NCBI GenBank assembly: GCA_963704905.1
Contig: CAVPHZ010000001.1
Coordinates: forward strand, 515,438-579,437
Source of the DNA: Candidatus Chisholmbacteria bacterium
Lineage (GTDB): Bacteria > Patescibacteriota > Microgenomatia > UBA1400 > Chisholmbacteraceae
Reading direction: 5' to 3'
Length of the DNA: 64,000 nt
This document shows positions 23,198 through 64,000 of this stretch, one piece after another; the stretch's first letter is position 1, and every line of letters begins with the position of its first letter. Both the position numbers and the translations under genes were made by a program. The notes beneath the pieces were generated by a model. The model did not search any database and was not told the DNA's origin. It worked only from the letters and a program-made list of their open reading frames with translations.

Positions 23198-23229
23198 TAC
23201 TTGTAGACTACGATACCTAAAGCGCGAAA

Positions 23230-45542: not shown

Positions 45543-45557
45543 AGGAGGATACAGATT

Positions 45558-46262
45558 ATGAATGAACTTATTTTGCTTATCATTTTACTTGGCGTAACAG
45601 CGTTTAACACCGTGTTTGTCACCATTCTTTTTCTACGGTCTAAAGCGAAAAAAGCAGAGGTTGTAGAAAAAAGTGAACAGATTTTAGAAGAAGCACAGAA
45701 AAAGGCAGATGAGATTGTACAGAAGGCAGTTGAGCAGGCGGACAAAATTGTCAGCGGTACAAAGCAGCGTGGCGAAAAAGTTACTGAAGAACAGAAGCAG
45801 AAAAGTGAAACGCTTGAGGTGCAGTACGAAGAGCAGCTGCGGACAGTAGTTGAGGATATTACTAAGCAGCTTCGGGTTGGAGAGAAAAAGGCGGAGGAGA
45901 TGTATACGCATTTTGTTGAGGAGATGCAGAAGAACGTTTCTCAAGGGGTAGAACTCAATCAAAAAGCACTGCAAGAAAAGGCGGATGATGCACTTGGTAA
46001 GACCCAGCAGCAAATTGATCAGTTCGTTGATGATGTGCAGGGAAGAGTGCGAAAGCAAATTGATGAACAAGTTGATAAAGCCCATGAGGCTATTGAGCAA
46101 TACAAGCGGCAACGCATGGAGGTGGTTGATACTAACGCAGTTCAAATTCTCGAGAAGGCGCTGGCAATTACTTTAGGGAAGAAGCTTCCACTCAGCGATC
46201 AAGTTGATTTAGTTTATCAGGCATTAGAGAAGGCTCGAGAAGAGGGGTTTTTCTCTGAGTAA
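45558..46262 (+). CDS. atpF: F-type ATP synthase subunit b-like
   Basis: It has a single N-terminal TM helix and a long charged coiled coil, and lies in the operon position of subunit b. Confidence 0.6.
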   Translation: MNELILLIILLGVTAFNTVFVTILFLRSKAKKAEVVEKSEQILEEAQKKADEIVQKAVEQADKIVSGTKQRGEKVTEEQKQKSETLEVQYEEQLRTVVEDITKQLRVGEKKAEEMYTHFVEEMQKNVSQGVELNQKALQEKADDALGKTQQQIDQFVDDVQGRVRKQIDEQVDKAHEAIEQYKRQRMEVVDTNAVQILEKALAITLGKKLPLSDQVDLVYQALEKAREEGFFSE

Positions 46263-46279
46263 CTTCGTAGGATTTCACA

Positions 46280-46798
46280 ATGGATGAGAAATTGATGAAT
46301 ACCATTTTGACTAATACGTATACCAAGGCGAGTTTATTGCGGCGTCTGGCATTATTCCGGTCGTTTTTAGAACACAAACATTACAGTACGTCTGGATTTA
46401 AGCGATTGAAAACATTTTTTGAGGAGAAAGAAGTTGTCGAAGATGATGCGCAGGCACTACAGTCATGGAGTGGGGTGTTCAATAAACGGCTTTCCCGAAG
46501 TACGTTTTACAAAAAGCTTGAGGCGATTCGCAAAGAGATATTGAGCTTGCCAAGTGTGACTGTGTATTTGCCGTTTATCGCTCAAGAATCAGAGCTTACC
46601 AAGATAGGCCAATGGCTGCGTGCGCATGTCAAAAAACAAATGATTATGGATGTGAAAGTTGATCCGGCTCTTGTCGGAGGATGCGCTCTGGTCTGGAATG
46701 GATATTATCGAGATTATTCACTGCATCGGCAATTTAAAGATAAAAGAGAAGATATCAATCAATTGATCAGTGATTTTGAGGAGAAAAAAGAGGAATAA
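46280..46798 (+). CDS. atpH: F-type ATP synthase delta (OSCP) subunit
   Basis: The size fits, and the C-terminal 'LVGGCALVWNGYYRDYSLHRQF' resembles the delta C-terminal motif. It lies between b and alpha. Confidence 0.6.
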   Translation: MDEKLMNTILTNTYTKASLLRRLALFRSFLEHKHYSTSGFKRLKTFFEEKEVVEDDAQALQSWSGVFNKRLSRSTFYKKLEAIRKEILSLPSVTVYLPFIAQESELTKIGQWLRAHVKKQMIMDVKVDPALVGGCALVWNGYYRDYSLHRQFKDKREDINQLISDFEEKKEE

Positions 46799-46902
46799 AG
46801 TGATTGATTTGGCCTGAAACATTCTGGTTCATTGCATTCACCAGATATGCACAAGGTGACACAGCCGATTATAAATAGCACATCAGCTGGGTCAATCTAC
46901 GT

Positions 46903-48477
46903 TTGGATGATTTAATTATGGAGAGTAAAAAGTTAAGAAATTCAAATACCCGAAGGCAAACCCGAAGTAAGCGATTGTCAAAGGCGGAGCAGGCCGATGT
47001 ATTGCGTCGGGAAGAAGTTGGATTAGTCGTTGAAACGCAAAATTATTTGTCTTACATTGAGGGATTGCCATCTGCGCGGGTAAATGATGTGTGTGTTTCA
47101 CAGGAAGGCCATCGTGGGTTGGTGTATGGTTTGAATCGCGGTCGAGTTGAAATTCTCTTGCTTGATCAAGAGCAACCAAAACCTGGGGATTTGTTTACGC
47201 TTGAACCAGAGGGCTTAAAGCTAGAGATAGGTGAAGAGTTGCTTGGTCGGGCGATTAGCCCTCTCGGGGAACCGCTTGATGGTCGAAAGAAGATTGCCGG
47301 CAATGGAACGAAGATCGAATTTGATGTTAAAGCTTTGGGAATTGAGTATCGAGAGATTATTTCTCAGCAAGTGGAGACGGGGATTAGCATTGTCGATACG
47401 CTCTTGGCTCTGGGAAGGGGTCAGCGAGAGTTAATTTATGGAGAACCGCGAAGCGGGAAAACGAGCTTTCTCCTTGATGCAATTATCAATCAGAAAGACC
47501 GCAATGTTGTTTGTATCTATGCTGCTATTGGTAAGAGTGAGATTGACACGAAGCGGTTTGTGAAGGATGTCGAGAAGGCAGGAGGACGTGATTACACCGT
47601 TGTCTTGGCTGCGACCTCGACTGAGCCGTCACCGGTGATTTTTATTGCACCAACTGTGGCAATGGCTGTGGCAGATTGGTTTCGAGAGCAGGGCAGGCAT
47701 GTGTTAGTGTTTCTCGATGATTTAGGAACACATGCGAAGTATTTGCGAGAGATGTCGCTGCTGGCAGAACGAACTCCTGGTAGAGAATCGTATCCAGGAG
47801 ACATGTTTTATCAGCATGCTCATATTTTAGAGAGGGCTGGGAATTTTAACGAAAAAGGCGGAGGAGGATCGGTTACACTGCTTCCGGTAATTGAAACAGA
47901 TCTTGATAACTTTACGGCCCTTGTACCAACTAATCTCATGGCTTCGACGGATGGACACTTGCTTTTTTCGGCATCGCTGCGTGCGGAAGGACGGCACCCG
48001 GCAATTGATGTGGATCGTTCAGTTACCCGAGTTGGACGGCAGACACAGTTTTTACTTCATAAACTTCTGGCAGATAAGATCAGACGCCTGCTGATTGATT
48101 TTGAAGAGCTACGGCGATTCAGCAGATTTGGTGCTGAAGTCAGCGAGGAAACACAGCTTGCCATTAAAAAAGGACAAATCATGCAGGAACTCTTGAGGCA
48201 GGAGCCACTTCAGAGGATTGACCGATTTGTGCAGATGCAGTATTTAGGTCTTGTGTTTACTCCGTTTTACGATCAGAAGGATTTGAACTTTTTACAGACA
48301 AACAAGACGAAAATTCTCTCAACTATTCAAGAAGCGCAGGAGTTTCGACTGATGCGTGATGAGATGGAAAAGAACATTGAGCATTTGGAAATTGAAAAAT
48401 TTCTAGAGCAGTTGGGGCAGAAATTATCGGTATTGGAGGAGGCATGCCAGAACTCACAGAGCTCAGAGAAGAACTAA
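46903..48477 (+). CDS. atpA: F-type ATP synthase alpha subunit (divergent)
   Basis: It has 'GRGQRELIYGEPRSGKTS' (compare GRGQRELIIGDRQTGKT), 'RESYPGDMFYQHAHILERAG', and 'VVLAATSTEPSPVIFIAP'. Confidence 0.8.
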   Translation: MDDLIMESKKLRNSNTRRQTRSKRLSKAEQADVLRREEVGLVVETQNYLSYIEGLPSARVNDVCVSQEGHRGLVYGLNRGRVEILLLDQEQPKPGDLFTLEPEGLKLEIGEELLGRAISPLGEPLDGRKKIAGNGTKIEFDVKALGIEYREIISQQVETGISIVDTLLALGRGQRELIYGEPRSGKTSFLLDAIINQKDRNVVCIYAAIGKSEIDTKRFVKDVEKAGGRDYTVVLAATSTEPSPVIFIAPTVAMAVADWFREQGRHVLVFLDDLGTHAKYLREMSLLAERTPGRESYPGDMFYQHAHILERAGNFNEKGGGGSVTLLPVIETDLDNFTALVPTNLMASTDGHLLFSASLRAEGRHPAIDVDRSVTRVGRQTQFLLHKLLADKIRRLLIDFEELRRFSRFGAEVSEETQLAIKKGQIMQELLRQEPLQRIDRFVQMQYLGLVFTPFYDQKDLNFLQTNKTKILSTIQEAQEFRLMRDEMEKNIEHLEIEKFLEQLGQKLSVLEEACQNSQSSEKN

Positions 48478-49283
48478 CTGAAATCACGACACTGAAATAC
48501 GTAAGCGCAGCATTTTTGGAGGCTGCGTCAGCAAAGATTGTGGGTATTCGTAAAGCGTTTGAGGTTAATCAACAGTTTTACGAAGAAGTGAGTCATGTTT
48601 ATCACGTTGTCAAAGTCAGTTCGGAATTGCTAAAAATTAAGGAGAAGAGACAAACTGAGCCTGGAAAAACGGTTTCGGTAGCAGTCACAAGCAATCACCG
48701 CTTCTATGGACTCTTAAACATTAACGTGATGAAGGAGTTTGCTGAAAAAACAGAGCAAGTACAGACTGATCGATTTGTTATAGGGAAAACTGGGGCTGAT
48801 TATCTGATGCTGAAGAGTTATAAGCAGCCATATGAAACAGTGATTAATGCTAAAGACACTCCAAACGAGGAGGAGATACGACAATTTTTAGAGCGGATCA
48901 CATCGTATGAGAAGGTGATTTTATATTACCCGAAGTTTGTCAGCATGATCAGCCAAGCCGTTGGTGTTACTGATATTACCCAATCGGCAAAGGAGGAAGA
49001 GGTCACTCCAGAGGATCTAATCCGGCATATCTTTGAGCCTGAACTTGATAAGATGGTTGCGTTTTTTGAGACGGTGATCCGAACTCTCTTATTCAGTCGG
49101 TCGATGCTTGAGGCAGATCTGTCGCGTACTGCGGCGAGGCTCATGTCAATGAGTTCGGCTGAGGAACGGGCGGATGAGTTGATTGTTGATAAGAAGAGTG
49201 AAATTCGTAAGGTGAGGCGGTCAATTCTTGATAAAGAGCTGCTTGATACGTTTGCAGGAATGAAGAACTGGAATAGGCATTAG
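48444..49283 (+). CDS. atpG: F-type ATP synthase gamma subunit
   Basis: It is 279 aa and lies between alpha and beta. The terminal helices are consistent with gamma. The sequence is divergent. Confidence 0.55.
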   Translation: MPELTELREELTEITTLKYVSAAFLEAASAKIVGIRKAFEVNQQFYEEVSHVYHVVKVSSELLKIKEKRQTEPGKTVSVAVTSNHRFYGLLNINVMKEFAEKTEQVQTDRFVIGKTGADYLMLKSYKQPYETVINAKDTPNEEEIRQFLERITSYEKVILYYPKFVSMISQAVGVTDITQSAKEEEVTPEDLIRHIFEPELDKMVAFFETVIRTLLFSRSMLEADLSRTAARLMSMSSAEERADELIVDKKSEIRKVRRSILDKELLDTFAGMKNWNRH

Positions 49284-50687
<1,404 letters not shown>

Positions 50688-50787
50688 TGTTTGTCCCGTA
50701 AACTCCTGGCTCGGTACATCTCGCCAGGTTATTACGGGATGACTGGATCGCACTATTGAGTTTAGCAATCCAGTCAAATGGAGAAAT

Positions 50788-51042
50788 ATGGCGAAGTTTA
50801 TTTTGAATGTCAGGATCAATAGCCCAGAGAAGATCATTTGGGAAGGGCAAGCATTGTCTGTGTCTTCTGAGAACAGTGAGGGACCGTTTGATATTTTGCC
50901 AAAACATGCAAATTTTATTACAGCAATCGAGGAAAAACCGATCAAGATAAAAACTCCAGATAAGAAAAAAATTGAGTATACGTTCCCACGGTCAGTACTT
51001 TACATGCATGATGATCTGGTGAGTATTTATACGCAGATTTGA
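50788..51042 (+). CDS. atpC: F-type ATP synthase epsilon subunit (beta-sandwich domain only)
   Basis: It has 'LNVRINSPEKIIWEGQALSVSSENSEGPFDILPKHANFITAIEEKPIKI'. At 84 aa it has no C-terminal helical hairpin. Confidence 0.7.
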   Translation: MAKFILNVRINSPEKIIWEGQALSVSSENSEGPFDILPKHANFITAIEEKPIKIKTPDKKKIEYTFPRSVLYMHDDLVSIYTQI

Positions 51043-51804
51043 AATGTTCATTTCTTTGCTTGTCCAAAGAAACGAACCAAAGAAAAGACAGGCCTGCTCT
51101 CGCGGTTGAATCACCTTCGATTTATCAGTGGAGATGGGGCCTCTCCGAAATTCCTTCGCAAGGCTCAGTCAGTTTCGGTTTCTCCTCCTGATAAATCGGG
51201 TGTTTCTAAACCACTTTCGCAAAGTCCTATATTTCTAGAGCGATCAAAAGGGTCTCGACAATTTCATTTTCATTAGTTGTGTTCTAAGAGATTCTTCAGT
51301 CATCGCTATTGTGGGTTCAATTATTTCCAGGCTAAAGTTGTTGGCGGGAACTTCAGAAGAGTGCTATTTCCTCAAGAATTCTCCAAGGCAAATTATTTAC
51401 GTTTTCAGTTATTTGAGGTGATTATTCTTTACTTGAGGTTCTCCTCTGGATTCAATTTGCATAGGTTTACCCTATCTTGGTACTTGACAAGGTATTCATA
51501 ATAGTACTTTAATGTACTTATCAATAGCAAAAGTTGTATAAAAGACTCATATAACAGGAAATTATAATAGCACTTCAATCACCACACGAATATATGAAGA
51601 ACAGCATCTACCAGAGGAAACTAGCTTTAGAAGTAAATACTAGCAAAATTATTTTCACGCAAGGGACATTTAACGTCCAACTTTGGTTTGATCTATCATT
51701 AGAAAATACCGATAAATCGGTCTTTTATAATTATTGCAACAATATTCGCTAGATATTACTAAGTTATGAATATTCGCCTGCCCAAGCGAATATAACCCGC
51801 CCAT

Positions 51805-54800
51805 ATGAGCAGCCTGCCCAAAGACTTCTCGCGATTTTTACAACAACAAGGCCTTAGTGGTGTATCGATTAAAAACTACACTGCTGATGTCAATAAATTC
51901 ATCAAATGGCTTGAGGCTACCGCTGATGGGCCAGTTGCGGCTCATTACATCCGAAAAAATCACATTGATCAGTACCTGGCATCACTAGAAACAGAAGGTG
52001 TGGCTGAGAGTACCATCAAGCGATATACCGCTGTCCTCAACCGCTTTTACTCCTGGATTCATCCGACACAAGTAAGGAAGGAGACTACCCCACCTCTGGC
52101 TCGTTACAAACCGAGAAAGCGCGGCGCACCTCGGAAAGCTTCCTCTGGAAGAGGATTGAGTCAACCTGATTTGGCTCAAGTTATGGAGCAAATGAAGGCT
52201 CAAGAGTCGCCGTTTGCCAAGCTTGCCTCAATCCCCATGCCAATTGCTGCGATTTCCGGCATCACCATTGTGGTCATGTTTGGAATCGCTTTTGTATCAA
52301 TTAATCATCTCTACTCGCTGTTTGCCGGACAGCGGACAACCTCCACCCTGCCGGCGGAATTTGCTACCGTTCCAGGGGATGTATTTGAGGATCTTCAACG
52401 AGGTAGGGTGCTGACTGCTCAAACTGAAGGAGGAGTACTGGAGTTTGGGACGAATGTGGGAACTGGATCAGCTGCCTTGGCAGTTGACAAGTCTGATGCT
52501 TTTGTGGGCGGGTTTGCTCTTGATGAGAGCGAGTACATCACCATTCCTGAGTCTCTACTTCTTGACACTGCGTACGGTCGAGTGCTAGCAGCTGCTACAT
52601 CAAGTGGGGTTTTGGAAATTAATACTGATACTGAAATAGCAGCAACCTTAACTGTTACTGGAGATGGAACGTACGGTGGATTGGTGACTGCATTGGGTGG
52701 GATCCAAACACAGAATGCTGATATCAATGCGGGAACAGGGGAACTTACCGCTTCCAACGTTATTTATGATGTACTGGCTGGTACAAATATTACGATTACC
52801 GGAGATGCGCAGAGTCCAGTTATTAATGCTGATACGGCTGGGATAGATACGATCATTGGGACCTCTGGGCGGATCACGGTATCAACAGCAGCGGATCCAG
52901 TGCTTGATATTTCGACTGACTATGCTGGACAGACTTCAATTTCAACACTTGGGACGATTACCAATGGAACATGGCAGGGAACTGAGATCGATGTGGTCTA
53001 TGGAGGGACTGGCTTAACGTCTGTGGCTTCTGGGCAATTGTTGTATGGAACTGGGACGGACACCTTAGGGACTCGGACGCTGGCGGCGGGAACGAATTTA
53101 ACTCTTACCGACAGCGGAACTGCGCTGACCTATGCAACTAGTTTAACTCCTACGTTTAACTACATCACTTCTACAGCGACAAGCAGTGGTATTGCGACGA
53201 CACAATATGGCGGGGACTATATCACCACGACGGCTACAAGCTCAGGATTTTCATTCAACGTCGGAGATGGTGGAGCGTTTCGATTCAGCGATGGAACGAA
53301 CACCCTTTTCCAAATTCTTGACGGAAATGAGTTTGGTGTTGCTAGTTTATCCGGAAAACAAAATGTCGGTGATCCAGCTTGTCAACCGGGACAGATCTAC
53401 TTCAATGAAGCTGGAAGTGTGTTTAAGGCGTGTACCGCAGAAAATACATGGACGACAATTGCCGATGAAAATGGACCAGTTACTTTTCATCCAGCATCAG
53501 CTGATAGCTGGGGTGATGCGAATCCAGGTATTTGGCTAGATGAGATTGGTGCTGGTTCCCCAGATCTTTTTCGACTTCAAGTTGGCGGATCAAGCCGATT
53601 TGTGGTGCCAAATGATGGTGGATTTCAGTCGGCAGTCGGCGGGGCAGGAACAGCATATTTGAACTTGTCTTCGACGGGAGATTTTGAGATTCAGGATGCG
53701 GGCACTCCGTTCGTGTCGTTTTTGGATAATGGCACTGTGACGTTTGATGGGGCGTCAACTTTCAATACTGACGTTAACTTAGTGATGGATGGGGCTGAGA
53801 ATGTCACGCTGACCAATGCAGCTGCTACGGCTGATCAATTAGCACTCACAGTGGGTGGAGTGACAACTGATGCGGTCGATGGTATTGTTGTAGATTTTAC
53901 TCAAGCTGATGATGCTGACGGGACTGATACGAATGCGGCTTTGTTTGTGGATGTGACTTCTTCATCGGGAGATGCTGATACGTTATATGGTGTGCGCATT
54001 GATGCAATTACTGGTGGTGCGGCTACAGAAACGGCATTGGATATTGGTGCTGGTTGGGATACGGCGATTAATATCGGAGGTGGGAGTATTGTCACGGCGG
54101 GTGGATACACACAAAGCGGAGCGAGTCAAAACACATTTACCGGAAATGTTGATGCAACTAATGGATTGGATGTAACAAATGCTGACCTCACGGTTGGAGG
54201 GGCGAATTTTGCTGTCGATGATGCGACAGGTGATATTACCTCGCTGGGTGATGCAACCATCGGCGGTCGAATCACATTTGAGAATAGCGAATATATTTCG
54301 AATGAAACGGATGACCTTATCATCTTTTCAGGATCAGGTGGATCAGATGATACCGATTTGGTTTTCAATCTTGATGGAGTGGCTCCAGTTATCTATTCTC
54401 AGTCCGACAGTGCTATTCGGATCGACGATGACTTGCACTTTGTCGGCGATCAGAACATTACGACGACGAGCGGGAATTTGAGTATTGTTCCTAATGGAAT
54501 ATTGACGATTGATACCTCCTCAGTCTTGAATGTCGGTACCGGTACTGCTACGGCTATTAACTTTGGAAATGCTTCGCTCGACTCCTTTACTGTAATAACG
54601 AATGGGTCAGGTGATAGTGAGGTCGTCTTACCGGCTCAATCGATATCTTCGACAGAGGTGTTGAATGAGTCACTTGATACAAACGATTTTGCTGCAACAC
54701 TCACATTCTCTGATGGAGATTTCATAGATCTTGGGTCAATTCAACCTACGGGTGGAATTAATGAAGGTTTTCGGCTACCGCAAGTAACAGGTGCAATTCC

Positions 54801-57800
54801 AAGTCCTGCGAGCGGGGAGGGATACCTTGCATATCGGGATGATGCCAATACTGTTGAATATTTTGACGGATCAAGCTGGATCACCATTGCTGCGCAGACA
54901 CCGCTCTGGGCTGATGATGGGACAATTACGCACCTGATTTCAAATACCGATGATTTATCTGTAGGTGGAATCACGTTGGCTTCACCATTTTCGGTGGATG
55001 TCGATACCAACACAGCGCGAATTGGTGACGGTGTTACCACCAATGCAAATTTATCGATGTATTCTTCGACCGCAGATACCGGTACTTTGACATACAACAC
55101 GAGCGATACTTTTCAGTTTTCGGGTGGAGATGTGCTCATAGATCAGGCACTCGAAGTTACCGCTATTACAACACTATCTGATGATCTTATTGTGGGTGGA
55201 ACGACGTTGGCATCACCTTTCTCGGTTGATGAGAGTGCAAACACCGTACGGATTGGTGATGCTGCTACCGGAAATGCAACTTTGGCGTTGTATGCGAGCA
55301 CTGGTCAAACCGGTTCGCTTCTTTTCAATACCAGCGATCAATTCCAGTTTACGGGTGGTGATGTTCGCATGGATCAGGATCTGACAGTTCTTGATGACAC
55401 AACTTTAGGAAATGCGGCTACTGACAGCATCACGCTCACAGGTTCGATTGCGACTAATGTCAATTTCTTGGATTCTGGTGTAGGAACCGATCGGTCGATC
55501 GCTGGCTCGGATGCAACTGGAGGTAACAGCGCAGGTGGAGATTTAACTGTACGAGCTGGAAACGCTACGGGAGTTGGTCAGGGTGGGGATTTAACTTTAG
55601 CTCCAGGATTAGCAGGAGGGGGAGGAACGGGTGGAGATGTTGTTTTTCAAACTGGAGATACGGTATTAGCAACTCGATTTACTATTGGAAATGACGGAAC
55701 GTTGACGCAGTCAGGGACCGGACAGGTGACTTTCTCCGGGAACGTCGATGCCACAAGTGGGCTCGATGTATCCGGAGGAAATCTAACCCTGACTGCGGCG
55801 AACGACATTGTTCTCTCGAGTGGAGCTCTGGATACTACTGGTGGGGTTTTAAACATTGCCGACACGAATGCCTCCTCGATTGCAATGGGGCATGCTTCGC
55901 TGGGATCGTTGACGGTTGTGACTGACGGTACTGGGGATAGTGAAGTCGTACTTCCAGATCAATCAATTTCCTCAACTGAAATTCTTGATGATACCGTTGC
56001 GACATCAGATCTAGCTGCATCTTTAGTCTTTGCGGATGGCGATTTTATTGATCTTGCGTCAATAATTAATTCAGCTGGTGTTAATGAAGGTTTTCGTTTG
56101 CCACAATCAAGTTCTGCACTTGGTAATCCTTCCAGCGGTGAGGGATACATAGCATATCGTTCAGATAGCAATAATATTCAGTTCTATGATGGCACTCAAT
56201 GGGTCACGCTTGCATCGTTTACCCCTCTTTGGACAGATGATGGAACTATTTCATATCTCATCGATACGGCTGATGACTTAGCTGTAGGTGGAACTACGCT
56301 CAATTCTCCATTTTCTGTAGACGTATCTGCTAATACCGTGAGAGTTGGAAGTGGGGCTACTGTCGATGCTGTGCTGCAGCTGTATGCTCAAGATAACGAT
56401 ACTGGAAACCTGACATACAACGTGAATGATCAATTTCAATTTTCCGGCGGAGATGTTCTCATTGACCAAGATTTTCGAGTTACCCAAACCACTACTCTTG
56501 ACGATGATCTCTACGTGGGAGCAACCGGACTTGCTGCTCCATTTTCAGTTGATGAGTCATTGAATACGGTACGCGTGGGGGATGGCAGCGGAACGAATGC
56601 GACCATTACCATGTATGCAAGTGATAATGATGTGGGGAGTTTTCTTTATAACACCAACGATAGCTTCGAGTTTCAAGGGGGAAATGTTCAAGTCGATCAG
56701 AATCTAACAGTTCAAGAGGATACTACTTTCGGCGATGCCACGACAGATACAATAACGGTAACAGGTTCATTCAACTCAAACCTAAATTTCTTAGATGCTG
56801 ACAATCAAAATTACACCTTTGCAGGTGCTGATGCAGTAACTGGATCCGGAAATGCTGGTGACTTAACCATTCGAGCAGGATCGGGTGGAGCTACGACAGG
56901 AAATGGCGGAGATTTGGTATTAGCCGGCGGAACTGTCACATCAGGTACAGCGGGATACATCGCCTTCCAGACTGACAACACTGAGCGACTGCGGATTGAA
57001 AATGATGGTGATCTCTTCTTTGAGCGAGGCAGCGAAGATTTGACCGTTCAGATCAGCGCTCCTTCGGGAGCATCGCGGGTGGCTACAATACCAGCGCTGA
57101 CTGCTGATGACACATTTGTGTTTGAGGTTCAGACTCAAACACTATCAAACAAGAGCTTAGCATCTCCTTCTATTACGGGCTCTCCAACTGCTGCCGGTGC
57201 TAGTTGGACTGATTTAGGTTCAGTCTCAACCATTGATATTAATGGCGGAACGATAGATGGGACAAGCATTGGGGTGACGACGCCTGCTAGTGGTACGTTT
57301 ACAACTTTATCCTCTTCAGGAGTAACTACCATTGGGAATGGTACTTCTACTGTGGCTATCGATTCATCTGATTGGGATATCACAGCTGCTGGTGTGGGAA
57401 CCGGATTTGATTCTTGGACAGTTGATAATTTGATTATTGACGGCAGCAATATCGGTCGAACGTCCGATCCAGATCTGTTGAATTTTGCAAATGCTATTCT
57501 GACCGTGAATGGCGATGTCCGGCTGGCTAACAATTCCAACATCGAAGTCGGTGGTTTGACTGGCGTGGCATATAACGCGATCTCAGATGGAGGAGGGTCG
57601 GCTAGTTTTGCTTCAACTGATAATGATCTTTATATCGAGGATATCCTTGAGGTTGACGGAACTGTATATATCGGTGGTAAGCCGCTATCAGCCAGTGCTC
57701 TTTGGGAAAATGAGAGTAATGTATTTCACCCAATTGATGAGTATGCCGGTGTGGTTGATTTAACTATTGGTGGTGAGGCAACTTCAAGTGCTGATATTTA

Positions 57801-60800
57801 TTTCTCGTCTGCCGGAGCCGCAGTATTTAATGAGCAATCGAACAGCGTTAACTTCAGAGTTGAGGGAAATAATGATCCTGATCTCATTTTTGCTGATGGA
57901 TCATCTGACACGGTTACCATTGGAGCTCAACTTGAACTGGGGAAATTGGGAGTGAGAGGAGATCAAGATGAAATTCAGTTTCGAGTGCGTGGAAACAGCA
58001 CCCAAAATGCAAACCTGATGGTGATTGAACAAAACAGCGGTGCAGATGCTTTGTCTGTTTCCAATGCTGGATTAACTTCAACTGCTGACTTGACGCTCGG
58101 TCTCAATGATACAACTGCAACCATTTCTACTAGTGATGTTGATGAAGATTTAACTATTGATCCGAACGGAACTGGCGATATCTACTTCAATGGGTCGACC
58201 TACGTGTTGACTGATTCAGGTGATTTTACGATTGGGGGCAGACAAACTTTTGAGAATGGTGAGTACATTCAGAATGAAACTGATGATATTTTTGCGTTCG
58301 TAGGCGCATCTGGCGTTGATGACACTGATCTGTATCTCAACCTCGATGGTAGCTATCCCATTCTTTATTCTAATACCGATACAACAATTGGTATTGATGA
58401 TGACCTGCAATTCATTGGCGCAACGAACATATCAAATACCAGTGGCAATCTTTCGATTAGCGCGGCTACAGATCTGTCAATTGACTCTACCAGTGATGTA
58501 AATATCGGTCCAACGTATGCGGCATTTATCACTATTGGGTCTTCGACATTAAATTCGGTTACGATAGACACCGATGGAACAGGTGACGGAGAACTTATTC
58601 TTCCTGACAGTTCTGTTTCATCTTTGGAAATTGTTAATGACAGTTTGACACCTACTGACTTTGCAGCAACGCTCACTTTTACTGATGGCGATTTTCTAGA
58701 TCTGGCAAGCATTGTTCCTTCAAGCAGTATCAATGAAGGTCTTCGATTGCCGCAATCATCCGGAGCGTTAGGTGAACCAGGATCCGGAGAAGGATATCTC
58801 GCATATCGAACTGATACCAACACTATTCAATACTATGATGGGGCTGACTGGCAATCAGTCGCATCATCGACGCCAATCTGGACTGATGACGGAACCATTA
58901 CCTATCTTATTTCCGCTACAGATGATATGGCGGTAGGAGGAACGTCTTTAGCTGCACCATTTTCTGTTGATGTGAGTGCGAATGCTGTTCGGATTGGAGA
59001 TGGTACTGTAGCTGGGAACGGCCGACTTACCATGTACGCCTCTGATACTGATCAGGGTACTATTATATTTAACACGAATGATCAATTTGAATTTAATGGT
59101 GCGGATGTTCTGGTTGACCAAGATTTCAGAGTTAATGGGAACACAACGCTTGATGATGATGTCTATATTGGAGCAACAACTTTAGCCGCTCCTTTTTCTG
59201 TAGATGTTTCGACTAATACGGTTCGACTTGGGGATGGAACCGCAAGCGGAGATGCGACACTGCTGATGTTCTCTTCGGGTGGAGATGTGGGGACACTTGC
59301 GTATACAACCAGTGATGAGTTCAATTTTCAAGGCGGAAATATTCGAACTGCGGGAATTATAGTTGAGGGTAACACAACGCTGGGAGATCAAGTCACCGAT
59401 ACGGTTACTGTTACTGGTTCTTTAAACAGCAATGTTAACTTTCTTGATCAGAACAACACCAGTTATACCGTTGCCGGTGCAGATGCTGGGACCGCTACTG
59501 GAAATGCTGGGAACCTGACAATTCGGGCTGGGTCTGGAGGATCAACGAGCGGAAGTGGTGGAGATCTCATCTTGTCTGCCGGGACAGTTACCTCTGGTAC
59601 CCCTGGAGATCTCAATTTGCGGACTAACAATGTTGACCGATTAGTCATTCAAGGAGATGGAACATTCCGATTTGAAGAAGGTGTGAATGACTTTATTCTC
59701 GATGTAAATGCGCCAACTGGGGCTGACAGAACAGGCACGATACCGACACTCTCTAGTAACGACACATTTGTGTTTGAGTCACTATCTCAAACTCTAACAA
59801 GCAAGACTTTAATATCTCCTACTATATCAGGTTCTCCAACGGCTGTGGGGGCTGCATGGGCTGATCTAGGGTCAGTAGCAACGATTGATATCAATGGGGG
59901 GACGATTGATGGAACTGCAATTGGCGGGAGCACTCCATCATCAGGTGCGTTTACGACTCTCTCATCAACCGGTGTAACTACCATTGGAAATGGCAGCTCA
60001 ACTGTTGCGATTGATAGCAATGATTGGGACATTACGAGTATTGGTGTGGGAACCGGGTTTAACTCCTGGACGGTTGATAATGTGATTATCGATGGAAATG
60101 ATATCGGGTTGGTTTCTGACACTGATCTGCTTTCTTTTACCGATAGCAATCTGACAGTGAATGGGGATGTGACGATCACGGGTGGGGATATAACCGGTGC
60201 AGCTGGAGCTGCATTGGATTTGGGTGAGCAAAACTCTGGAGATGTGACGGTTACTGGAGACTTGATTTTGGCTGATGACGCCTTCATTGGGATTGGTGGG
60301 AGTGCAGCCCGAATCGTGTTTGACTCGACACCAACTCCAGATCAGATCGATATTCTTTCTGCAAGCTTAGACATGAATAACAATATCATTACGAATATCG
60401 GGAATGCTGCGACTGATTTTGATACAAACGGCGGACTGACATTAGCTGCTGATTTGGCGGTTAATGGTGGAGACCTGACAACCACTGACTCTACTTTCAA
60501 TTTGGTGAATAACACGCCAACTACCGTCAATTTTGCCGGGAATGCAGGAGCTATTTCTATCGGAGCTGTAACCGGGACGACGACGGTGAATCACAATCTT
60601 ACGGTTGCGGGGGTGTTCACCGCAAACGGCCAGGCGAATATCGGTGACGGCGGGGATACGGTGGCGATAAACTCGAGCGATTGGGATATCACCTCGACCG
60701 GTGTAGGAACAGGGTTTGATTCATGGACGGTAGACAACTTGATTATTAATGGGAATAACATCGGGACGCTTACCGATCAGGACTTGATTGTATTTGCCGA

Positions 60801-62769
60801 TAACCTGCTCACCTTAAATGGTGGATTGACAATGAGTGGAACGTTGGATGCCAATGGACAAGTAGATTTGGGAGATGGTGGTGATGCGGTAGCTGTATCC
60901 GGAACAACTGTGACGATAAGCGCTAATGGTTCAACCAATGACATCACGATGAATTTAGTAGACAACAATACTGATGCCTTTGATCTCCAAGAAGGGACTA
61001 ATAATTACATTAACATCAATACTTTGGATGGATCAGAAGAGATTGAACTAGGTAACACTGTAACTAATCCAGACATTACTTTGATTGGGAGCGGAGCGTT
61101 TAACTGTACAGATTGTATTGATTTTGATGACTTGAGTGACAATATGAGCGTGGATGCAGCGACCACCATTAGTCTTGACGCGAATAACTTTGCAATTAAC
61201 ATGAATTCTACTGGGGAGTTTATTCTTCAGGATAATGGTGGAGATATCTTCCGCGCTGATGATTCCACGGGAACAATGACCTTTTCCGATGATGTCGACC
61301 TTCAATTTGCCGGAGCTGAGAATCTTACTATTTCAAATGTCAGCGTCACTAGTGGTGCGGATATTGTGGCTTTGAACATGACTGTTCCCGACTCGACGAG
61401 TGCTGACGCCATGCATATCTCAATTACTGATAATTCAGCCAGTAGCGGGAATGTGCGTGGACTAGTAGTTGAGACAGGTAACGGTGCCGCGACACTTGAC
61501 TCAGCAATCGCGATTAACCACACAGATACTGGTCAGGCAATGACGGCTGGGATTGAGATTACCGGTGATCCTTCTACTGCAATTACTATTGCCCTTGATG
61601 TCGATGATCCTGAGATTGTTACCGCACTTTCAGCTGGGGCAAATGATTTAACGGGGACAAACTGGAGCATTAATGGGTCAACTGGGAGTTTAACATTAAC
61701 CGGTGATGCAGCTGTGAACGGTGGGGATTTAACTTCTACAGCTGGGACACTGAACATCAATGCCGGTGGCAATGTCGATGTTCAAGACGCGTTGAATGCT
61801 GACAGTATAACCACTGACACAGGTGGTGTGACCATTGCTGCTGGGCAGAGTTACACTGGCGCTGGGACTGTGACGCTTTCATCCGGAGGAGCGGCTGGAC
61901 TCACGCTTGACTCAGCAAGTGGAACAATTAACCTGAGTACAAATGATGATTTAGCCGCAAGTGGCGACGTTGACCTGACGTTTGCAGGTACTGAGAACTT
62001 GGCAATGACATCTGACCTGGCCGGGACGGTTAATGTCACCAGCATTGTTACAACTCCTTCGAATACTGCGGGGACGACGCGTGGGATATTTCTTCAGCAA
62101 ACAAATTCTGCCAATACCAATGGCCTTGATAGTGCGATTGTGGTTGATAATGCTGATCTTAATTTGGCGATTGGAACAGCAATTCAGATTACTGACTCAG
62201 GTGGTGGAGGATACACCACAATTCTTGATACACCTACGACTGATATCAGTGGTACTGGTGATATTAGCGTGCCAGCTGGGACTGGACTTGATACAAATGC
62301 AATAGGCACGTTGAATTTGGGAGCTGGTTTGGCAAATGCTATTTCAGTCGGCACAAGCGGGATGACTACAACCGTCAATGGTTCCCTGACGGTTACTGAG
62401 ACGCTGACTGGGACAGGTGAGGTGGTTCTTGGAGATGGTGGAGATAATGTCACGATTGATAGTGCAGATTGGGATATTACCAGTACAGGAGTTGGAACAG
62501 GATTTGATTCTTGGACGGTTGATAGTCTGATTCTCAATGGGATTACCATTGGTTTAACTACCGATACTGATCTGCTTTCCTTAGCAGATAACGCATTGAC
62601 AGTGAATGGTGACATGACGCTCACTGGAGGGGATATCACCGGCGCCGGGGGTGCTGCAATCGATATTGGTGAGGCGAATGCTGGAGATATTACCTTAACC
62701 GGTGATGTCATTGTTGGTGAGGATGCGTTTGTGGGACTTGTCAGCAACTGGAGCGCGGTTCGTTTTTGA
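51805..62769 (+). CDS. giant (3654 aa as called) membrane-anchored surface repeat protein with N-terminal phage-integrase SAM-like (core-binding) domain
   Basis: The N-terminus 'FLQQQGLSGVSIKNYTADVNKFIKWLE...STIKRYTAVLNRFYSWI' matches the integrase N-terminal SAM-like pattern. The TM helix is 'IPMPIAAISGITIVVMFGIAFVSI'. It then carries more than 3,400 aa of Gly/Thr/Asp/Asn-rich repeats. The repeat sequence continues beyond the stop at 62769 in other frames. Confidence 0.7.
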   Translation: MSSLPKDFSRFLQQQGLSGVSIKNYTADVNKFIKWLEATADGPVAAHYIRKNHIDQYLASLETEGVAESTIKRYTAVLNRFYSWIHPTQVRKETTPPLARYKPRKRGAPRKASSGRGLSQPDLAQVMEQMKAQESPFAKLASIPMPIAAISGITIVVMFGIAFVSINHLYSLFAGQRTTSTLPAEFATVPGDVFEDLQRGRVLTAQTEGGVLEFGTNVGTGSAALAVDKSDAFVGGFALDESEYITIPESLLLDTAYGRVLAAATSSGVLEINTDTEIAATLTVTGDGTYGGLVTALGGIQTQNADINAGTGELTASNVIYDVLAGTNITITGDAQSPVINADTAGIDTIIGTSGRITVSTAADPVLDISTDYAGQTSISTLGTITNGTWQGTEIDVVYGGTGLTSVASGQLLYGTGTDTLGTRTLAAGTNLTLTDSGTALTYATSLTPTFNYITSTATSSGIATTQYGGDYITTTATSSGFSFNVGDGGAFRFSDGTNTLFQILDGNEFGVASLSGKQNVGDPACQPGQIYFNEAGSVFKACTAENTWTTIADENGPVTFHPASADSWGDANPGIWLDEIGAGSPDLFRLQVGGSSRFVVPNDGGFQSAVGGAGTAYLNLSSTGDFEIQDAGTPFVSFLDNGTVTFDGASTFNTDVNLVMDGAENVTLTNAAATADQLALTVGGVTTDAVDGIVVDFTQADDADGTDTNAALFVDVTSSSGDADTLYGVRIDAITGGAATETALDIGAGWDTAINIGGGSIVTAGGYTQSGASQNTFTGNVDATNGLDVTNADLTVGGANFAVDDATGDITSLGDATIGGRITFENSEYISNETDDLIIFSGSGGSDDTDLVFNLDGVAPVIYSQSDSAIRIDDDLHFVGDQNITTTSGNLSIVPNGILTIDTSSVLNVGTGTATAINFGNASLDSFTVITNGSGDSEVVLPAQSISSTEVLNESLDTNDFAATLTFSDGDFIDLGSIQPTGGINEGFRLPQVTGAIPSPASGEGYLAYRDDANTVEYFDGSSWITIAAQTPLWADDGTITHLISNTDDLSVGGITLASPFSVDVDTNTARIGDGVTTNANLSMYSSTADTGTLTYNTSDTFQFSGGDVLIDQALEVTAITTLSDDLIVGGTTLASPFSVDESANTVRIGDAATGNATLALYASTGQTGSLLFNTSDQFQFTGGDVRMDQDLTVLDDTTLGNAATDSITLTGSIATNVNFLDSGVGTDRSIAGSDATGGNSAGGDLTVRAGNATGVGQGGDLTLAPGLAGGGGTGGDVVFQTGDTVLATRFTIGNDGTLTQSGTGQVTFSGNVDATSGLDVSGGNLTLTAANDIVLSSGALDTTGGVLNIADTNASSIAMGHASLGSLTVVTDGTGDSEVVLPDQSISSTEILDDTVATSDLAASLVFADGDFIDLASIINSAGVNEGFRLPQSSSALGNPSSGEGYIAYRSDSNNIQFYDGTQWVTLASFTPLWTDDGTISYLIDTADDLAVGGTTLNSPFSVDVSANTVRVGSGATVDAVLQLYAQDNDTGNLTYNVNDQFQFSGGDVLIDQDFRVTQTTTLDDDLYVGATGLAAPFSVDESLNTVRVGDGSGTNATITMYASDNDVGSFLYNTNDSFEFQGGNVQVDQNLTVQEDTTFGDATTDTITVTGSFNSNLNFLDADNQNYTFAGADAVTGSGNAGDLTIRAGSGGATTGNGGDLVLAGGTVTSGTAGYIAFQTDNTERLRIENDGDLFFERGSEDLTVQISAPSGASRVATIPALTADDTFVFEVQTQTLSNKSLASPSITGSPTAAGASWTDLGSVSTIDINGGTIDGTSIGVTTPASGTFTTLSSSGVTTIGNGTSTVAIDSSDWDITAAGVGTGFDSWTVDNLIIDGSNIGRTSDPDLLNFANAILTVNGDVRLANNSNIEVGGLTGVAYNAISDGGGSASFASTDNDLYIEDILEVDGTVYIGGKPLSASALWENESNVFHPIDEYAGVVDLTIGGEATSSADIYFSSAGAAVFNEQSNSVNFRVEGNNDPDLIFADGSSDTVTIGAQLELGKLGVRGDQDEIQFRVRGNSTQNANLMVIEQNSGADALSVSNAGLTSTADLTLGLNDTTATISTSDVDEDLTIDPNGTGDIYFNGSTYVLTDSGDFTIGGRQTFENGEYIQNETDDIFAFVGASGVDDTDLYLNLDGSYPILYSNTDTTIGIDDDLQFIGATNISNTSGNLSISAATDLSIDSTSDVNIGPTYAAFITIGSSTLNSVTIDTDGTGDGELILPDSSVSSLEIVNDSLTPTDFAATLTFTDGDFLDLASIVPSSSINEGLRLPQSSGALGEPGSGEGYLAYRTDTNTIQYYDGADWQSVASSTPIWTDDGTITYLISATDDMAVGGTSLAAPFSVDVSANAVRIGDGTVAGNGRLTMYASDTDQGTIIFNTNDQFEFNGADVLVDQDFRVNGNTTLDDDVYIGATTLAAPFSVDVSTNTVRLGDGTASGDATLLMFSSGGDVGTLAYTTSDEFNFQGGNIRTAGIIVEGNTTLGDQVTDTVTVTGSLNSNVNFLDQNNTSYTVAGADAGTATGNAGNLTIRAGSGGSTSGSGGDLILSAGTVTSGTPGDLNLRTNNVDRLVIQGDGTFRFEEGVNDFILDVNAPTGADRTGTIPTLSSNDTFVFESLSQTLTSKTLISPTISGSPTAVGAAWADLGSVATIDINGGTIDGTAIGGSTPSSGAFTTLSSTGVTTIGNGSSTVAIDSNDWDITSIGVGTGFNSWTVDNVIIDGNDIGLVSDTDLLSFTDSNLTVNGDVTITGGDITGAAGAALDLGEQNSGDVTVTGDLILADDAFIGIGGSAARIVFDSTPTPDQIDILSASLDMNNNIITNIGNAATDFDTNGGLTLAADLAVNGGDLTTTDSTFNLVNNTPTTVNFAGNAGAISIGAVTGTTTVNHNLTVAGVFTANGQANIGDGGDTVAINSSDWDITSTGVGTGFDSWTVDNLIINGNNIGTLTDQDLIVFADNLLTLNGGLTMSGTLDANGQVDLGDGGDAVAVSGTTVTISANGSTNDITMNLVDNNTDAFDLQEGTNNYININTLDGSEEIELGNTVTNPDITLIGSGAFNCTDCIDFDDLSDNMSVDAATTISLDANNFAINMNSTGEFILQDNGGDIFRADDSTGTMTFSDDVDLQFAGAENLTISNVSVTSGADIVALNMTVPDSTSADAMHISITDNSASSGNVRGLVVETGNGAATLDSAIAINHTDTGQAMTAGIEITGDPSTAITIALDVDDPEIVTALSAGANDLTGTNWSINGSTGSLTLTGDAAVNGGDLTSTAGTLNINAGGNVDVQDALNADSITTDTGGVTIAAGQSYTGAGTVTLSSGGAAGLTLDSASGTINLSTNDDLAASGDVDLTFAGTENLAMTSDLAGTVNVTSIVTTPSNTAGTTRGIFLQQTNSANTNGLDSAIVVDNADLNLAIGTAIQITDSGGGGYTTILDTPTTDISGTGDISVPAGTGLDTNAIGTLNLGAGLANAISVGTSGMTTTVNGSLTVTETLTGTGEVVLGDGGDNVTIDSADWDITSTGVGTGFDSWTVDSLILNGITIGLTTDTDLLSLADNALTVNGDMTLTGGDITGAGGAAIDIGEANAGDITLTGDVIVGEDAFVGLVSNWSAVRF

Positions 62770-64000
62770 TGGAACCCCTGCTCCAGATGAAATTGATGTT
62801 CTTTCTGCGACGCTCGATTTGAACAACAACCTGATCACCAATATTGGCAGCGCGGGAACTGACTTTACCTCAGGTGGTGGGTTGACCTTGGCAGGTAACG
62901 CCAATTTGACTTTGTCGAGTGGAACCGGATCGCTTGTCATGACAAATGCCGTGACTAATGTTTCTGAGCAGGTGATTGATATTGCCCCTGGGTTTACCGG
63001 GGGAGGTTCAGACGGGCTTAACTATAATGTTATCGATATCGCGGCGTTTGCGCCGAGTAATGCGAGCGGAACAGATTATGTTGATGGCATTTCGATTGGG
63101 AATCTCACCGATCCGGGAGGGACTATCGAAAGTACGGCGATTGATATTGGGACTGGATGGGATTATGCCCTGCGAGTAGCGGGCACGACGGTGGTTGATG
63201 GTTCTGGCAATATTCCTTCCGGGTTACTGACCGGAACACTTTTTGACTTGGATGCAGATAGCGGGACTCTTCAAAACGTTGAGCAGGGTGATGAAGTTGA
63301 CCATCGCTGGAGGGACAAATATCTCAACCGTGGTAGGCGCGACGGATACGGTTACCGTGAACCTCGACCCCTCGATTACCTTGACCGGGGATGCGGCAGT
63401 CAATGGTGGAGATATCACTACAAATGCTGACGTTTTTAATCTCATCGACACCGATGCGGAGACGGTCAACTTTGCCGGAGCGGCAACCACCCTGAATATT
63501 GGTGCTTCGTCGGGCACGACGGCGATTGCCAATGCACTTGATATCGCCGGGGCTTTAACCGCGAACGGGAATATTGATTTGGGGAACGCGGCTACAGATT
63601 CAATTACATTTAATGGCAGCATTGACAGTAACGTGAACTTTTTGGATGCGGCGGTCGGGGTTGACTATACGCTGGCCGGTTCGGATGCGACGGGGGTCAA
63701 CAGCGCGGGTGGGGATCTTACCGTTCGGGGTGGTAGTGCCACGGGGAATGCTTTGGCAGGAAACTTGACTTTAGCGGGTGGAATCGCCGGGGTAGGCGGG
63801 ACGGGCAATAGCATCATCTTCCAGACCGGGGACCAGGCTTTGTCCACTCGTTTAACAATAGAGAACGACGGGGACATTACCCAGGCGGGAAGCGGGCAGG
63901 TGACGTTTACGGGGAACGTTGATACCACCAGCGGGCTGGATGTTTCCGGTGGGAACCTGACGATTGCTGCGGCAAACGATATCCTATTATCAACTGGTGC
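62702..64000 (+). CDS. continuation of giant repeat protein in shifted frames (62702..63430 frame, then a further frame from about 63293 to window end)
   Basis: 'FVFDGTPAPDEIDVLSATLDLNNNLITNIGSAGTDF' parallels 'IVFDSTPTPDQIDILSASLDMNNNIITNIGNAATDF' at 60310. An open frame 'KLTIAGGTNISTVVGATDTVTVNLDPSITLTGDAAVNGG...' runs to 64000. Confidence 0.5.

Follow-up and report, generated by a model that had tools for sequence, protein, structure and literature searches.

A giant gene for a probable surface protein with an integrase-type core-binding domain next to the ATP synthase operon of a Candidatus Chisholmbacteria bacterium

Results

The main open reading frame and its N-terminal domain

We analysed a stretch of 64,000 nucleotides (nt) from a Candidatus Chisholmbacteria genome (GenBank: GCA_963704905.1, contig CAVPHZ010000001.1, positions 515,438 to 579,437 of the forward strand), called the window from here on, and within it a giant gene starting at window position 51805. 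Its product combines the core-binding (SAM-like) domain of tyrosine recombinases with a transmembrane (TM) helix and a repeat-rich ectodomain of thousands of amino acids (aa). The parts of the gene are listed with the evidence for each.

51805-62769 (+): main open reading frame (ORF) with SAM-like domain, linker, TM helix and repeat ectodomain (ORF scan)
51823-52056 (+): tyrosine-recombinase core-binding (SAM-like) domain, aa 7-84, single copy (Pfam, NCBIfam and PDB sequence matches, AlphaFold 2 (AF2) and Foldseek)
52090-52218 (+): basic cytoplasmic linker, aa 96-138, net charge +6 (hydropathy and charge scan)
52219-52326 (+): single TM helix, aa ~139-174, predicted N-in/C-out (Kyte-Doolittle scan, charge asymmetry, orthologue alignment)
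52327-62766 (+): extracellular T/G/S/D/A-rich repeat region with tail-fibre-like segments (self-similarity, PHROG segment matches, AF2)
54757-55794 (+): SGEGY repeat unit, copy 1, aa 985-1330 (motif, self-similarity)
56080-57105 (+): SGEGY repeat unit, copy 2, aa 1426-1767 (motif, self-similarity)
58729-59754 (+): SGEGY repeat unit, copy 3, aa 2309-2650 (motif, self-similarity)
62742-62769 (+): first +1 frame change, one extra base against the paralogous repeat, giving the stop at 62767-62769 (repeat comparison)
62747-63296 (+): coding continuation in the +1 frame (frame analysis)
63297-64000 (+): coding continuation past the second +1 frame change, leaving the window (frame analysis)

The main ORF has 3,654 codons from the ATG at 51805 to the stop at 62767-62769, and its first 10,962 nt are free of frame breaks. 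Residues 7-84 match the Pfam model Phage_int_SAM_1 (Pfam: PF02899) with E=7.2e-11 and 42.7 bits against a cutoff of 22.3, and also Phage_int_SAM_4 (Pfam: PF13495, E=1.3e-9), again over the curated threshold. Sequence matches in the PDB include 3nrw and 4a8e. The AF2 model of aa 1-100, for which a 30-sequence family alignment was the input, shows four helices with a predicted local distance difference test (pLDDT) score of 91.4. When this model was compared with the PDB by Foldseek, the top ~29 matches were all tyrosine-recombinase core-binding domains (XerA, IntI, Cre, lambda Int), the best one being XerA (PDB: 5hxy) with a root mean square deviation of 1.8-2.0 Å over 83-86 residues. The top match of the PDB sequence search, 9i5v, named 'RaiA', is misleading: it is a 400-aa P. 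gingivalis protein with 34 modelled residues, and the match is to its recombinase-type N-terminus. Trans_reg_C gave no match in the main ORF protein, and the N-terminal fold is that of a recombinase core-binding domain and not the OmpR/PhoB-type winged helix.

A search for the Phage_integrase catalytic domain (Pfam: PF00589) gave no match in the protein of 3,654 aa at a threshold as loose as E≤1, the catalytic R-H-R-Y region is missing from this protein, and the NCBIfam XerD/XerC/XerA models align to the main ORF only over model positions 1 to ~95-130. From sequence and model together, we take the N-terminal domain to be a genuine tyrosine-recombinase core-binding domain without its catalytic half, and the protein is predicted to be incapable of recombining DNA because neither PF00589 nor the R-H-R-Y region is present. 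A split integrase with the catalytic domain encoded in trans was considered, and none was found among the window ORFs scanned. Neither the three frames upstream of the ATG nor the remainder of the protein contains a second SAM-like copy, and beyond aa 7-84 the protein has no Pfam match, not even a weak one.

A preliminary description of this DNA, made from the sequence alone, had proposed an N-terminus of the SAM-like tyrosine-recombinase type without a catalytic domain, followed by a basic linker, a TM helix and repeats. The significant HMM match and the structure comparison agree with the first part, and the absence of the catalytic domain is borne out by Pfam and by the partial XerD/XerC matches. 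The order of the following parts is also as described: the SAM-like domain is not a separate small ORF and is in frame with the TM helix and the repeats, and the motif KPRKRGAPRK (aa 102-111) lies within the linker. The segment after the TM helix is slightly acidic. Together with the basic linker this predicts, by the positive-inside rule, an N-in/C-out topology, so the main ORF product would be a type II single-pass membrane protein.

The ectodomain and its repeats

In the main frame the ectodomain is ~3,480 aa long and contains large diverged duplications with 55-60% identity. Self-comparison paired aa 811-1340 with 2135-2660, aa 884-1300 with 1326-1737 and aa 1325-1959 with 2214-2833. The motif SGEGY[IL]AYR is found within these duplicated blocks at aa 1003, 1444 and 2327 (nt 54811, 56134 and 58783). 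Three copies of the SGEGY module are therefore present out of the 'three or four' described before; no fourth was found, and the spacing is an uneven 1,323 and 2,649 nt instead of a regular ~1.3 kb.

Segments of the ectodomain match PHROG tail fibre or virion structural families with E-values of 4e-6 to 9e-7, namely phrog_31660 (8.6e-7) and phrog_4527 (4e-6). No Peptidase_S74 domain was seen in the portion of the gene inside the window. The AF2 model of one SGEGY unit, built on a shallow alignment, consists of beta strands only and has a pLDDT of 49; it was set aside and no fold search was made with it. We infer that the ectodomain is a long cell-surface fibre or adhesin for attachment to a host cell or substrate, which fits the expectation for an episymbiotic bacterium from the candidate phyla radiation (CPR).

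Gene end and frame changes

The preliminary description gave the gene more than 4,000 codons running off the window. The single frame stops at 62769, and the window end is reached through two +1 frameshifts. The extra base behind the first one, at ~62745, is seen against the in-frame paralogous repeat at 60250-60480. The product of the last part, 63297-64000, is a homologue of main-ORF residues 1123-1340 (56% identity).

The same locus is present on a Logan short-read contig of run ERR12037370, where the ATP synthase beta and HTH-LytR_C (HTH, helix-turn-helix) proteins are identical to those of the window. On this contig the gene call has at least 3,680 codons and no stop, and it stays open up to the end of the contig, equivalent to window position 62846; this evidence comes from the called protein. 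Since the frame of an independent contig stays open beyond the stop at 62769, the frame changes are likely polishing or assembly errors in repeats. The true gene is probably longer than 4,065 codons.

The window has six apparent frame changes (30240-30298, 31890-31958, ~32095, 38886-39172, ~62745 and ~63295), all +1 and all within repeat-rich surface-protein genes. Three are in a second giant gene with a MerR-type anchor described below, one is in the 38144/38916 pair, two are in the SAM-like gene and none is in a housekeeping gene. No common slippery motif or homopolymer was found at the six zones. Their uniform +1 direction is odd.

These frame changes, two of them in the gene itself, raise the question whether the gene is an artefact or in decay, that is a pseudogene, a mis-assembled chimera or a prophage tail-fibre remnant joined to an integrase fragment. 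The likeness of ectodomain segments to phage tail fibres and the public annotation of relatives as integrases would fit such an origin. Set against this, all frame changes fall in genes rich in repeats, a setting in which polishing errors are to be expected. A single frame covers the first 10,962 nt, and the independent assembly is open past the stop. Hundreds of clusters (50% identity) moreover have the fused architecture, as do 16 syntenic loci by the atp operon, with no phage genes nearby. Because the architecture is conserved across the family, we regard an artefact or decaying gene as very improbable.

Relatives and conserved synteny

We searched 1.84 billion cluster representatives with aa 1-200 as query (HMMER phmmer, E≤1e-3) and found 355 related cluster representatives. 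The top ones, with E-values of 1e-26 to 1e-10, are family-type proteins rather than ordinary integrases. Among the best 150 of the 355, the common plan is SAM-like domain, TM helix and variable ectodomain, and many are 1,300-6,346 aa long; nearly all of those longer than 350 aa have a single TM helix at aa ~210-430 and a long tail. Two tandem SAM-like domains are present in 126 of 149 relatives, whereas the window protein has one. PF00589 was found in none of the 13 relatives scanned. The ectodomains differ and include S74/G2 chaperone domains with strong tail-fibre PHROG matches (P0014, P0017 and P0023), collagen repeats, lectin-like domains, DUF2341 with Laminin_G_3, and LVIVD propellers. 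Public sources label members of the family 'site-specific integrase' or 'site-specific recombinase XerD'.

The nearest relatives of the N-terminal domain come from Candidatus Gottesmanbacteria and other Patescibacteria metagenome-assembled genomes (MAGs). Scanning species-representative genomes with an 8-sequence alignment as query gave ten loci, all in Gottesmanbacteria or Patescibacteria MAGs and all with two SAM-like domains, a TM helix and a long tail. Together with six metagenome contigs these make up 16 loci. In all 16 the gene lies directly after atpB-F-H-A-G-D-C, in the same order as in the window:

44682-51042 (+): F-type ATP synthase operon (atpB-like, F, H, A, G, D, C), directly upstream of the giant gene, conserved synteny partner (ORF and profile scan)

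The identity of atpD across these loci is just 58-71%, and the flanking intergenic sequence is not conserved. As the gene sits right after the atp operon in 16/16 loci, as it does here, sequence comparison identifies the window gene as a single-domain positional orthologue, in a family where the anchor module appears conserved and the ectodomain exchanged between lineages. The anchor module kept across the orthologues consists of the SAM-like domain or domains, the TM helix and the juxtamembrane segment. The wider search proposed in the preliminary description thus found the architecture to be recurrent, in hundreds of clusters as well as in the syntenic loci. The term 'phage-type' used there for the anchor does not imply that the locus came from a phage, as this is a conserved chromosomal gene after the atp operon in at least 16 related genomes.

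Residues 1-99 of the window protein align with domain 1 of the relatives at ~44% identity, and residues 15-224 align with domain 2, linker, TM helix and juxtamembrane region at ~30%. The single domain is consistent, by sequence, with the in-frame loss of one tandem copy. Other single-domain proteins are known as a minority variant (L027, P0031, P0044, P0070 and P0072), and the single-domain orthologue L027 aligns with the window protein from the N-terminal domain through the TM helix and the juxtamembrane segment.

In the more distant relatives L097 (GCA_049322615.1, JBMORX010000010, 8001-9200; same as L098) and L099 (8001-8700; same as L100) the gene is split inside the second SAM-like domain, and the split point is identical in both. 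An ORF of 163-170 aa, comprising domain 1 and the first ~40 aa of domain 2, is closed by a stop and followed by intervening DNA, either 651 nt that include a 190-aa ORF or 174 nt. The downstream giant ORF starts with the rest of domain 2, continues with the TM helix and has 5,631 aa in L097 and at least 3,317 aa in L099. An intron, a mobile insertion and recoding are candidate causes; for a group I or II intron, the intervening DNA has no Rfam match at E≤1. Gene splitting probably explains many of the 135-185-aa 'integrase/XerD' entries, of which 71 were counted.

Right before the TM helix, P0017, P0023, P0046, P0049, P0057, P0059, P0065, P0068 and other relatives carry conserved linker motifs, YS(K/R)F(P/A)P(L/F/V)RLxQK and RPxWY(K/R)xYH, which could be partner-binding or processing sites. 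In the window protein the linker shows no more than PPLARYKPRK, possibly a compressed form of these motifs. The cores of these motifs (FPPxRLxQK and RPxWYxxYH) suggest partner binding and so would suit a SAM-like domain that serves as a protein docking or sorting module, comparable to RodZ, placing the fibre at the pole, septum or export site or coupling it to a partner. The strongly basic character of the linker, +6 in the window protein and +4.5 on average in relatives, speaks against such a docking role.

A conserved promoter and palindrome in the orthologues

In the spacer between atpC and the giant gene, the 16 loci have a sigma-70-type promoter in common (cTCTTGACg, 17-19 nt, TTATTATA). 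A 30-bp 12-6-12 element, TGTAAY-N3-YTG-N6-CAA-N3-RTTACA, is positioned 13-20 nt past this conserved -35/-10 promoter. The start codon, a GTG in 15/16 loci, follows 11-45 nt after the palindrome. The pattern TGTAAY-N18-RTTACA occurs once per locus (10-20 kb) in 9/10 representative loci, and the tenth has a variant. Six further loci were found by a metagenome scan with the strict DNA pattern alone, in each of which a SAM-like gene starts 14-38 nt after the element.

Each arm of the palindrome individually satisfies the TGTAAY..YTG consensus, and an outer arm position covaries symmetrically as C..G or T..A. Mid-arm positions are complementary in 40-70% of the sequences only, and the overall arm pairing of 80.8% compares with 78.6% in column shuffles, 80/500 of which are as high. 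An RNA hairpin is disfavoured by these numbers. Because the arms keep the consensus individually and pair no better than shuffles, the sequence evidence favours a protein-recognised inverted repeat with the geometry of a recombinase core site. The idea that one SAM-like domain and the two-arm palindrome were lost jointly was dropped, since L027, with its single domain, has retained the canonical palindrome.

The palindrome bears on the role of the SAM-like domain. If this were a docking module, the palindrome would be the operator of an unrelated regulator or a 5' untranslated region element, and its 12-6-12 core-site-like geometry beside a core-binding domain would be a coincidence; the window gene, L097 and L099, all without the canonical palindrome, would be easier to understand. 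Alternatively, the N-terminal domains could hold the chromosome at the membrane or fibre, at dif- or ram-like sites or non-specifically through the basic linker, with a role in segregation or organisation of the ultra-small cell and not in transcription control. The core-binding domain is the DNA-clamp half of the Xer type, the palindrome has the arm-spacer-arm layout of recombinase sites, and the basic linker is AT-hook-like, all of which would fit. However, the palindrome is placed precisely between promoter and start codon, as is typical of operators, it is unlike the canonical dif sequence (inner TTATG arms), and there is one site per 10-20 kb locus.

About 45 of the 88 sites in the metagenome pattern scan are one unrelated perfect 30-bp palindrome, TGTAAC[AG]ACTTGAT(TT/AA)ATCAAGT[TC]GTTACA, with no adjoining SAM-like gene. 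This palindrome is present in L012, L015, L016, L019-L026 and some 35 other contigs, and many of the contigs bear the label human gut metagenome. Probably it serves a common gut bacterium as a conserved operator or terminator. Several other sites are AT-rich chance matches without an adjoining ORF.

The upstream region of the window gene

In the window, atpC ends at 51042 (50788-51042), which leaves a spacer of 762 bp before the start of the giant gene at 51805. Three candidate elements were annotated in it.

51484-51513 (+): candidate sigma-70-type promoter, TTGACA, 18 nt, TTTAAT (pattern match, one mismatch)
51537-51566 (no strand): degenerate 12-6-12 inverted repeat TATAAAAGACTC-ATATAA-CAGGAAATTATA (best spacer match to TGTAAYNNNYTGNNNNNNCARNNNRTTACA, 14/18)
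51742-51793 (no strand): three exact ATATTCGC copies (51742+, 51770+, 51786-) (repeat scan)

The candidate promoter resembles the cTCTTGACg -35 box of the orthologues, and such matches are not enriched in the window. The inverted repeat begins 23 nt after the candidate -10 and both of its arms share the same G-to-A change; a match of 14/18 was also reached by 24/500 shuffles (p about 0.05). It is possibly the diverged counterpart of the orthologues' palindrome. Five exact copies of ATATTCGC exist in the 64 kb, three of them within 52 bp. The last two of these form an 8-8-8 inverted repeat that ends 12 nt before the ATG, and the RNA hairpin of this repeat is no more stable than those of shuffles (z=-0.45).

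A nine-codon mini-ORF at 51766-51795, ATG AAT ATT CGC CTG CCC AAG CGA ATA TAA (MNIRLPKRI and stop), overlaps the ATATTCGC inverted repeat. Its GCCTGCCCAA is a direct repeat of the start of the main ORF (MSSLPK...), and it could be the remnant of an older start or a leader peptide.

Sister genes of the same plan in the window

Two further genes of the window encode proteins with an N-terminal HTH domain, a TM helix and an extracellular part.

27896-36313 (+): paralogous giant gene with two MerR/excisionase HTH domains, TM helix at aa 175-205, tail-fibre-like repeats and three +1 frame changes
42391-43839 (+): third gene of the same plan, with IS481-transposase-type N-terminal HTH, TM helix at aa 247-275 and extracellular LytR_C

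The MerR-anchored and the SAM-like giant gene have modules in common with 32-57% identity, and the homologous module of the MerR-anchored gene matches tail-fibre PHROGs (phrog_892 at 1.3e-11). The 482-aa product of the third gene matches the IS481-type HTH in NCBIfam (E=5e-17) over profile positions 2-111 of 284, without a DDE domain, and a homologue of this gene is found upstream of the atp operon in L007. The earlier suggestion of two paralogous fibres with different DNA-binding anchors is supported by these data, and the pattern extends to the third gene.

The SAM-like, the two MerR/excisionase HTH and the IS481-type HTH anchors have nucleic-acid binding in common, and all are derived from mobile-element proteins. 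Three different folds at the same position could mean that any compact helical domain may serve as a cytoplasmic plug, as a docking role would allow. The three unrelated N-terminal domains, however, share nucleic-acid binding and no partner surface, and taken with the linker charge and the palindrome geometry we consider docking or sorting rather unlikely. The MerR-type HTH of the paralogue is weakly similar to RacA (E=0.0016), which is a chromosome-anchoring protein and thus a further point for the N-terminal domains tying the chromosome to the envelope. Given the operator-typical position and single occurrence of the palindrome, such anchoring appears improbable.

Genomic context

Otherwise the window is ordinary chromosome and encodes glutamate dehydrogenase, peptidyl-tRNA hydrolase, Lgt, glycosyltransferases and a two-component system. 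Scans of the 64 kb for phage genes, tRNAs and Rfam families gave no match. The five window proteins checked, namely ATP synthase beta, glutamate dehydrogenase, the HTH-TM-LytR_C protein, peptidyl-tRNA hydrolase and a 564-aa secreted protein, are singletons at 90% identity.

Downstream of the MerR-anchored gene, the genes at 36321-38015, 38144-39716 and 39766-40797 (all +) encode secreted or membrane-anchored proteins without Pfam match. The first two products are paralogues, both with the motif TSWTTVNL(S/A)NTF, and the three genes may be accessory components of the fibre locus. Upstream of the MerR-anchored gene are a histidine kinase with 7TM receptor (HisKA_7TM, GAF, HisKA, HATPase; 23230-25440, -), adjoined by a receiver-only response regulator (22814-23326, -), and a weakly Fic/DeoR-like protein (26745-27698, -).

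The GC skew is +0.06 to +0.32 in every 2-kb bin of the window except 32-34 kb (-0.01), regardless of gene strand. A one-strand G/C disparity along the whole chromosome has been reported for the Microgenomatia order UBA1400 (PMC7143001), and this genome may share it. G+C content peaks locally in the exceptional bin, 32001-34000, which lies inside the MerR-anchored gene: it reaches 54%, compared with ~43% for the window, the skew is near zero, and repeats drive the composition.

Discussion

Possible function of the DNA-binding anchor

The giant protein may be a surface fibre with a DNA-binding cytoplasmic domain that works as a membrane-tethered autoregulator or as a tether of the gene to the membrane, a reading we consider about evenly balanced between right and wrong. 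It is favoured because three unrelated DNA-binding folds hold the same position in three bitopic proteins of the window, because the linkers are basic, and because a palindrome resembling a recombinase site is conserved at the operator position before the orthologues. The cytoplasmic core-binding domain would keep its ancestral sequence-specific DNA binding without strand cleavage. Its most likely target would be an operator right after the promoter of its own gene, leading to ToxR-like one-component autoregulation or to membrane tethering of the gene. As candidate operator the orthologues have the 30-bp 12-6-12 palindrome, which imitates a recombinase core site in its geometry and would have diverged in the window gene.

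More specifically, the domesticated core-binding domains may read the 12-6-12 palindrome of their own promoter and couple the state of the fibre directly to DNA, by autoregulation or as a tether. We put this specific form forward tentatively, as possible and clearly less probable than the general one. Release of the N-terminal domain on host contact would be one route from the fibre to the DNA.

Several points weigh against a fibre that regulates or tethers its own gene. A membrane-fixed protein can regulate only genes that are brought to the membrane. The 16 palindrome loci are all orthologous, so the palindrome counts as one deeply conserved regulatory element and offers no independent associations, and it may be the site of another regulator instead of the SAM-like protein. 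The window itself has no match to the canonical palindrome even with 3 mismatches, and its own cis candidates, the 51537-51566 match and the ATATTCGC cluster, are weak. Both the atp synteny and the palindrome are missing from the more distant relatives L097 and L099. A role as fibre or adhesin leans on weak segment homologies, with an AF2 unit model that is unusable at its pLDDT, and the frame changes might be real, as in a pseudogene or through strain variation.

Comparison with known systems

With the tyrosine recombinases (XerC/XerD/XerA, integron and phage integrases), the protein shares the N-terminal four-helix core-binding domain in sequence and fold, and the candidate DNA site of its orthologues shares the arm-spacer-arm layout. 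Unlike them, it is a giant protein without catalytic domain and with a TM helix and a giant ectodomain, and its relatives duplicate the core-binding domain in tandem. A typical recombinase of this kind is a soluble ~300-400-aa protein by a mobile element, whereas the window protein has 3,654 aa or more, a TM helix and a chromosomal site by the atp operon.

In the regulators ToxR, CadC and TcpP, one TM helix links a cytoplasmic N-terminal DNA-binding domain to an extracytoplasmic part. The layout of the window protein is alike, by analogy only, and the promoter-proximal site of the orthologues would fit autoregulation. These regulators have an OmpR-type winged helix and a small sensor, in contrast to the core-binding fold with predicted DNA binding and the fibre of thousands of residues in the window protein. 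RodZ is bitopic as well, with an HTH, a TM helix and a periplasmic domain, and its HTH binds MreB rather than DNA. It resembles the window protein in the bitopic plan with a cytoplasmic helical domain of DNA-binding type, but has a small ectodomain and no sequence relation to it.

With phage tail fibres and tailspikes that end in a Peptidase_S74/G2 intramolecular chaperone, the family members P0014, P0017 and P0023 share the S74/G2 domains. For the window protein and its paralogue, segments match tail-fibre PHROGs, and the ectodomain of the window protein as a whole has no Pfam match. Unlike tail fibres, the window gene is cellular, its product has an N-terminal TM anchor, and its neighbours are ATP synthase and housekeeping genes and not phage structural genes.

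The use of a tyrosine-recombinase fold as a sequence-specific DNA-binding regulator has a precedent in MrpR/YopR, the master repressor of the Bacillus phage SPbeta (PMC10516654). MrpR is a prophage repressor, and the title and abstract of that report name no membrane anchor, whereas the protein described here has the core-binding domain only, is anchored in the membrane and is encoded on the chromosome. For the giant genes of Omnitrophota and other predatory bacteria, N-terminal C39/S8 peptidase domains, signal peptides and dockerin-type proteins are reported (bioRxiv 10.1101/2023.11.21.568195). Their products are alike in being very long, repeat-rich surface proteins implicated in cell-cell interaction in small-celled uncultivated bacteria; no integrase or SAM-like domain is mentioned for them, and lineage and domain content differ from the family described here.

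Meaning for the family

No description of the SAM-like-TM-giant-ectodomain architecture was found in the literature searched, including that giant-gene preprint and the CPR protein-family paper. The parts are each of a known kind; to our knowledge, neither their combination nor the conserved locus has been described. For the annotation of genomes this means that many Patescibacteria 'site-specific integrase' or 'XerD' entries are probably N-terminal pieces of surface proteins, and counting them as integrases would inflate estimates of mobile elements.

CPR bacteria, or Patescibacteria, account for much of bacterial diversity and probably live on host cells, and their attachment and contact sensing are largely obscure. 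The genes described here form a conserved chromosomal family of giant CPR surface proteins, with ectodomain swapping between lineages as expected for host-range determinants. If the anchor module binds the palindrome, organisms that have few conventional regulators would possess a testable route by which a surface fibre acts on gene expression. With the MerR- and transposase-HTH paralogues included, this would, if true, amount to one-component trans-envelope signalling of a new class, assembled from DNA-binding modules of mobile elements.

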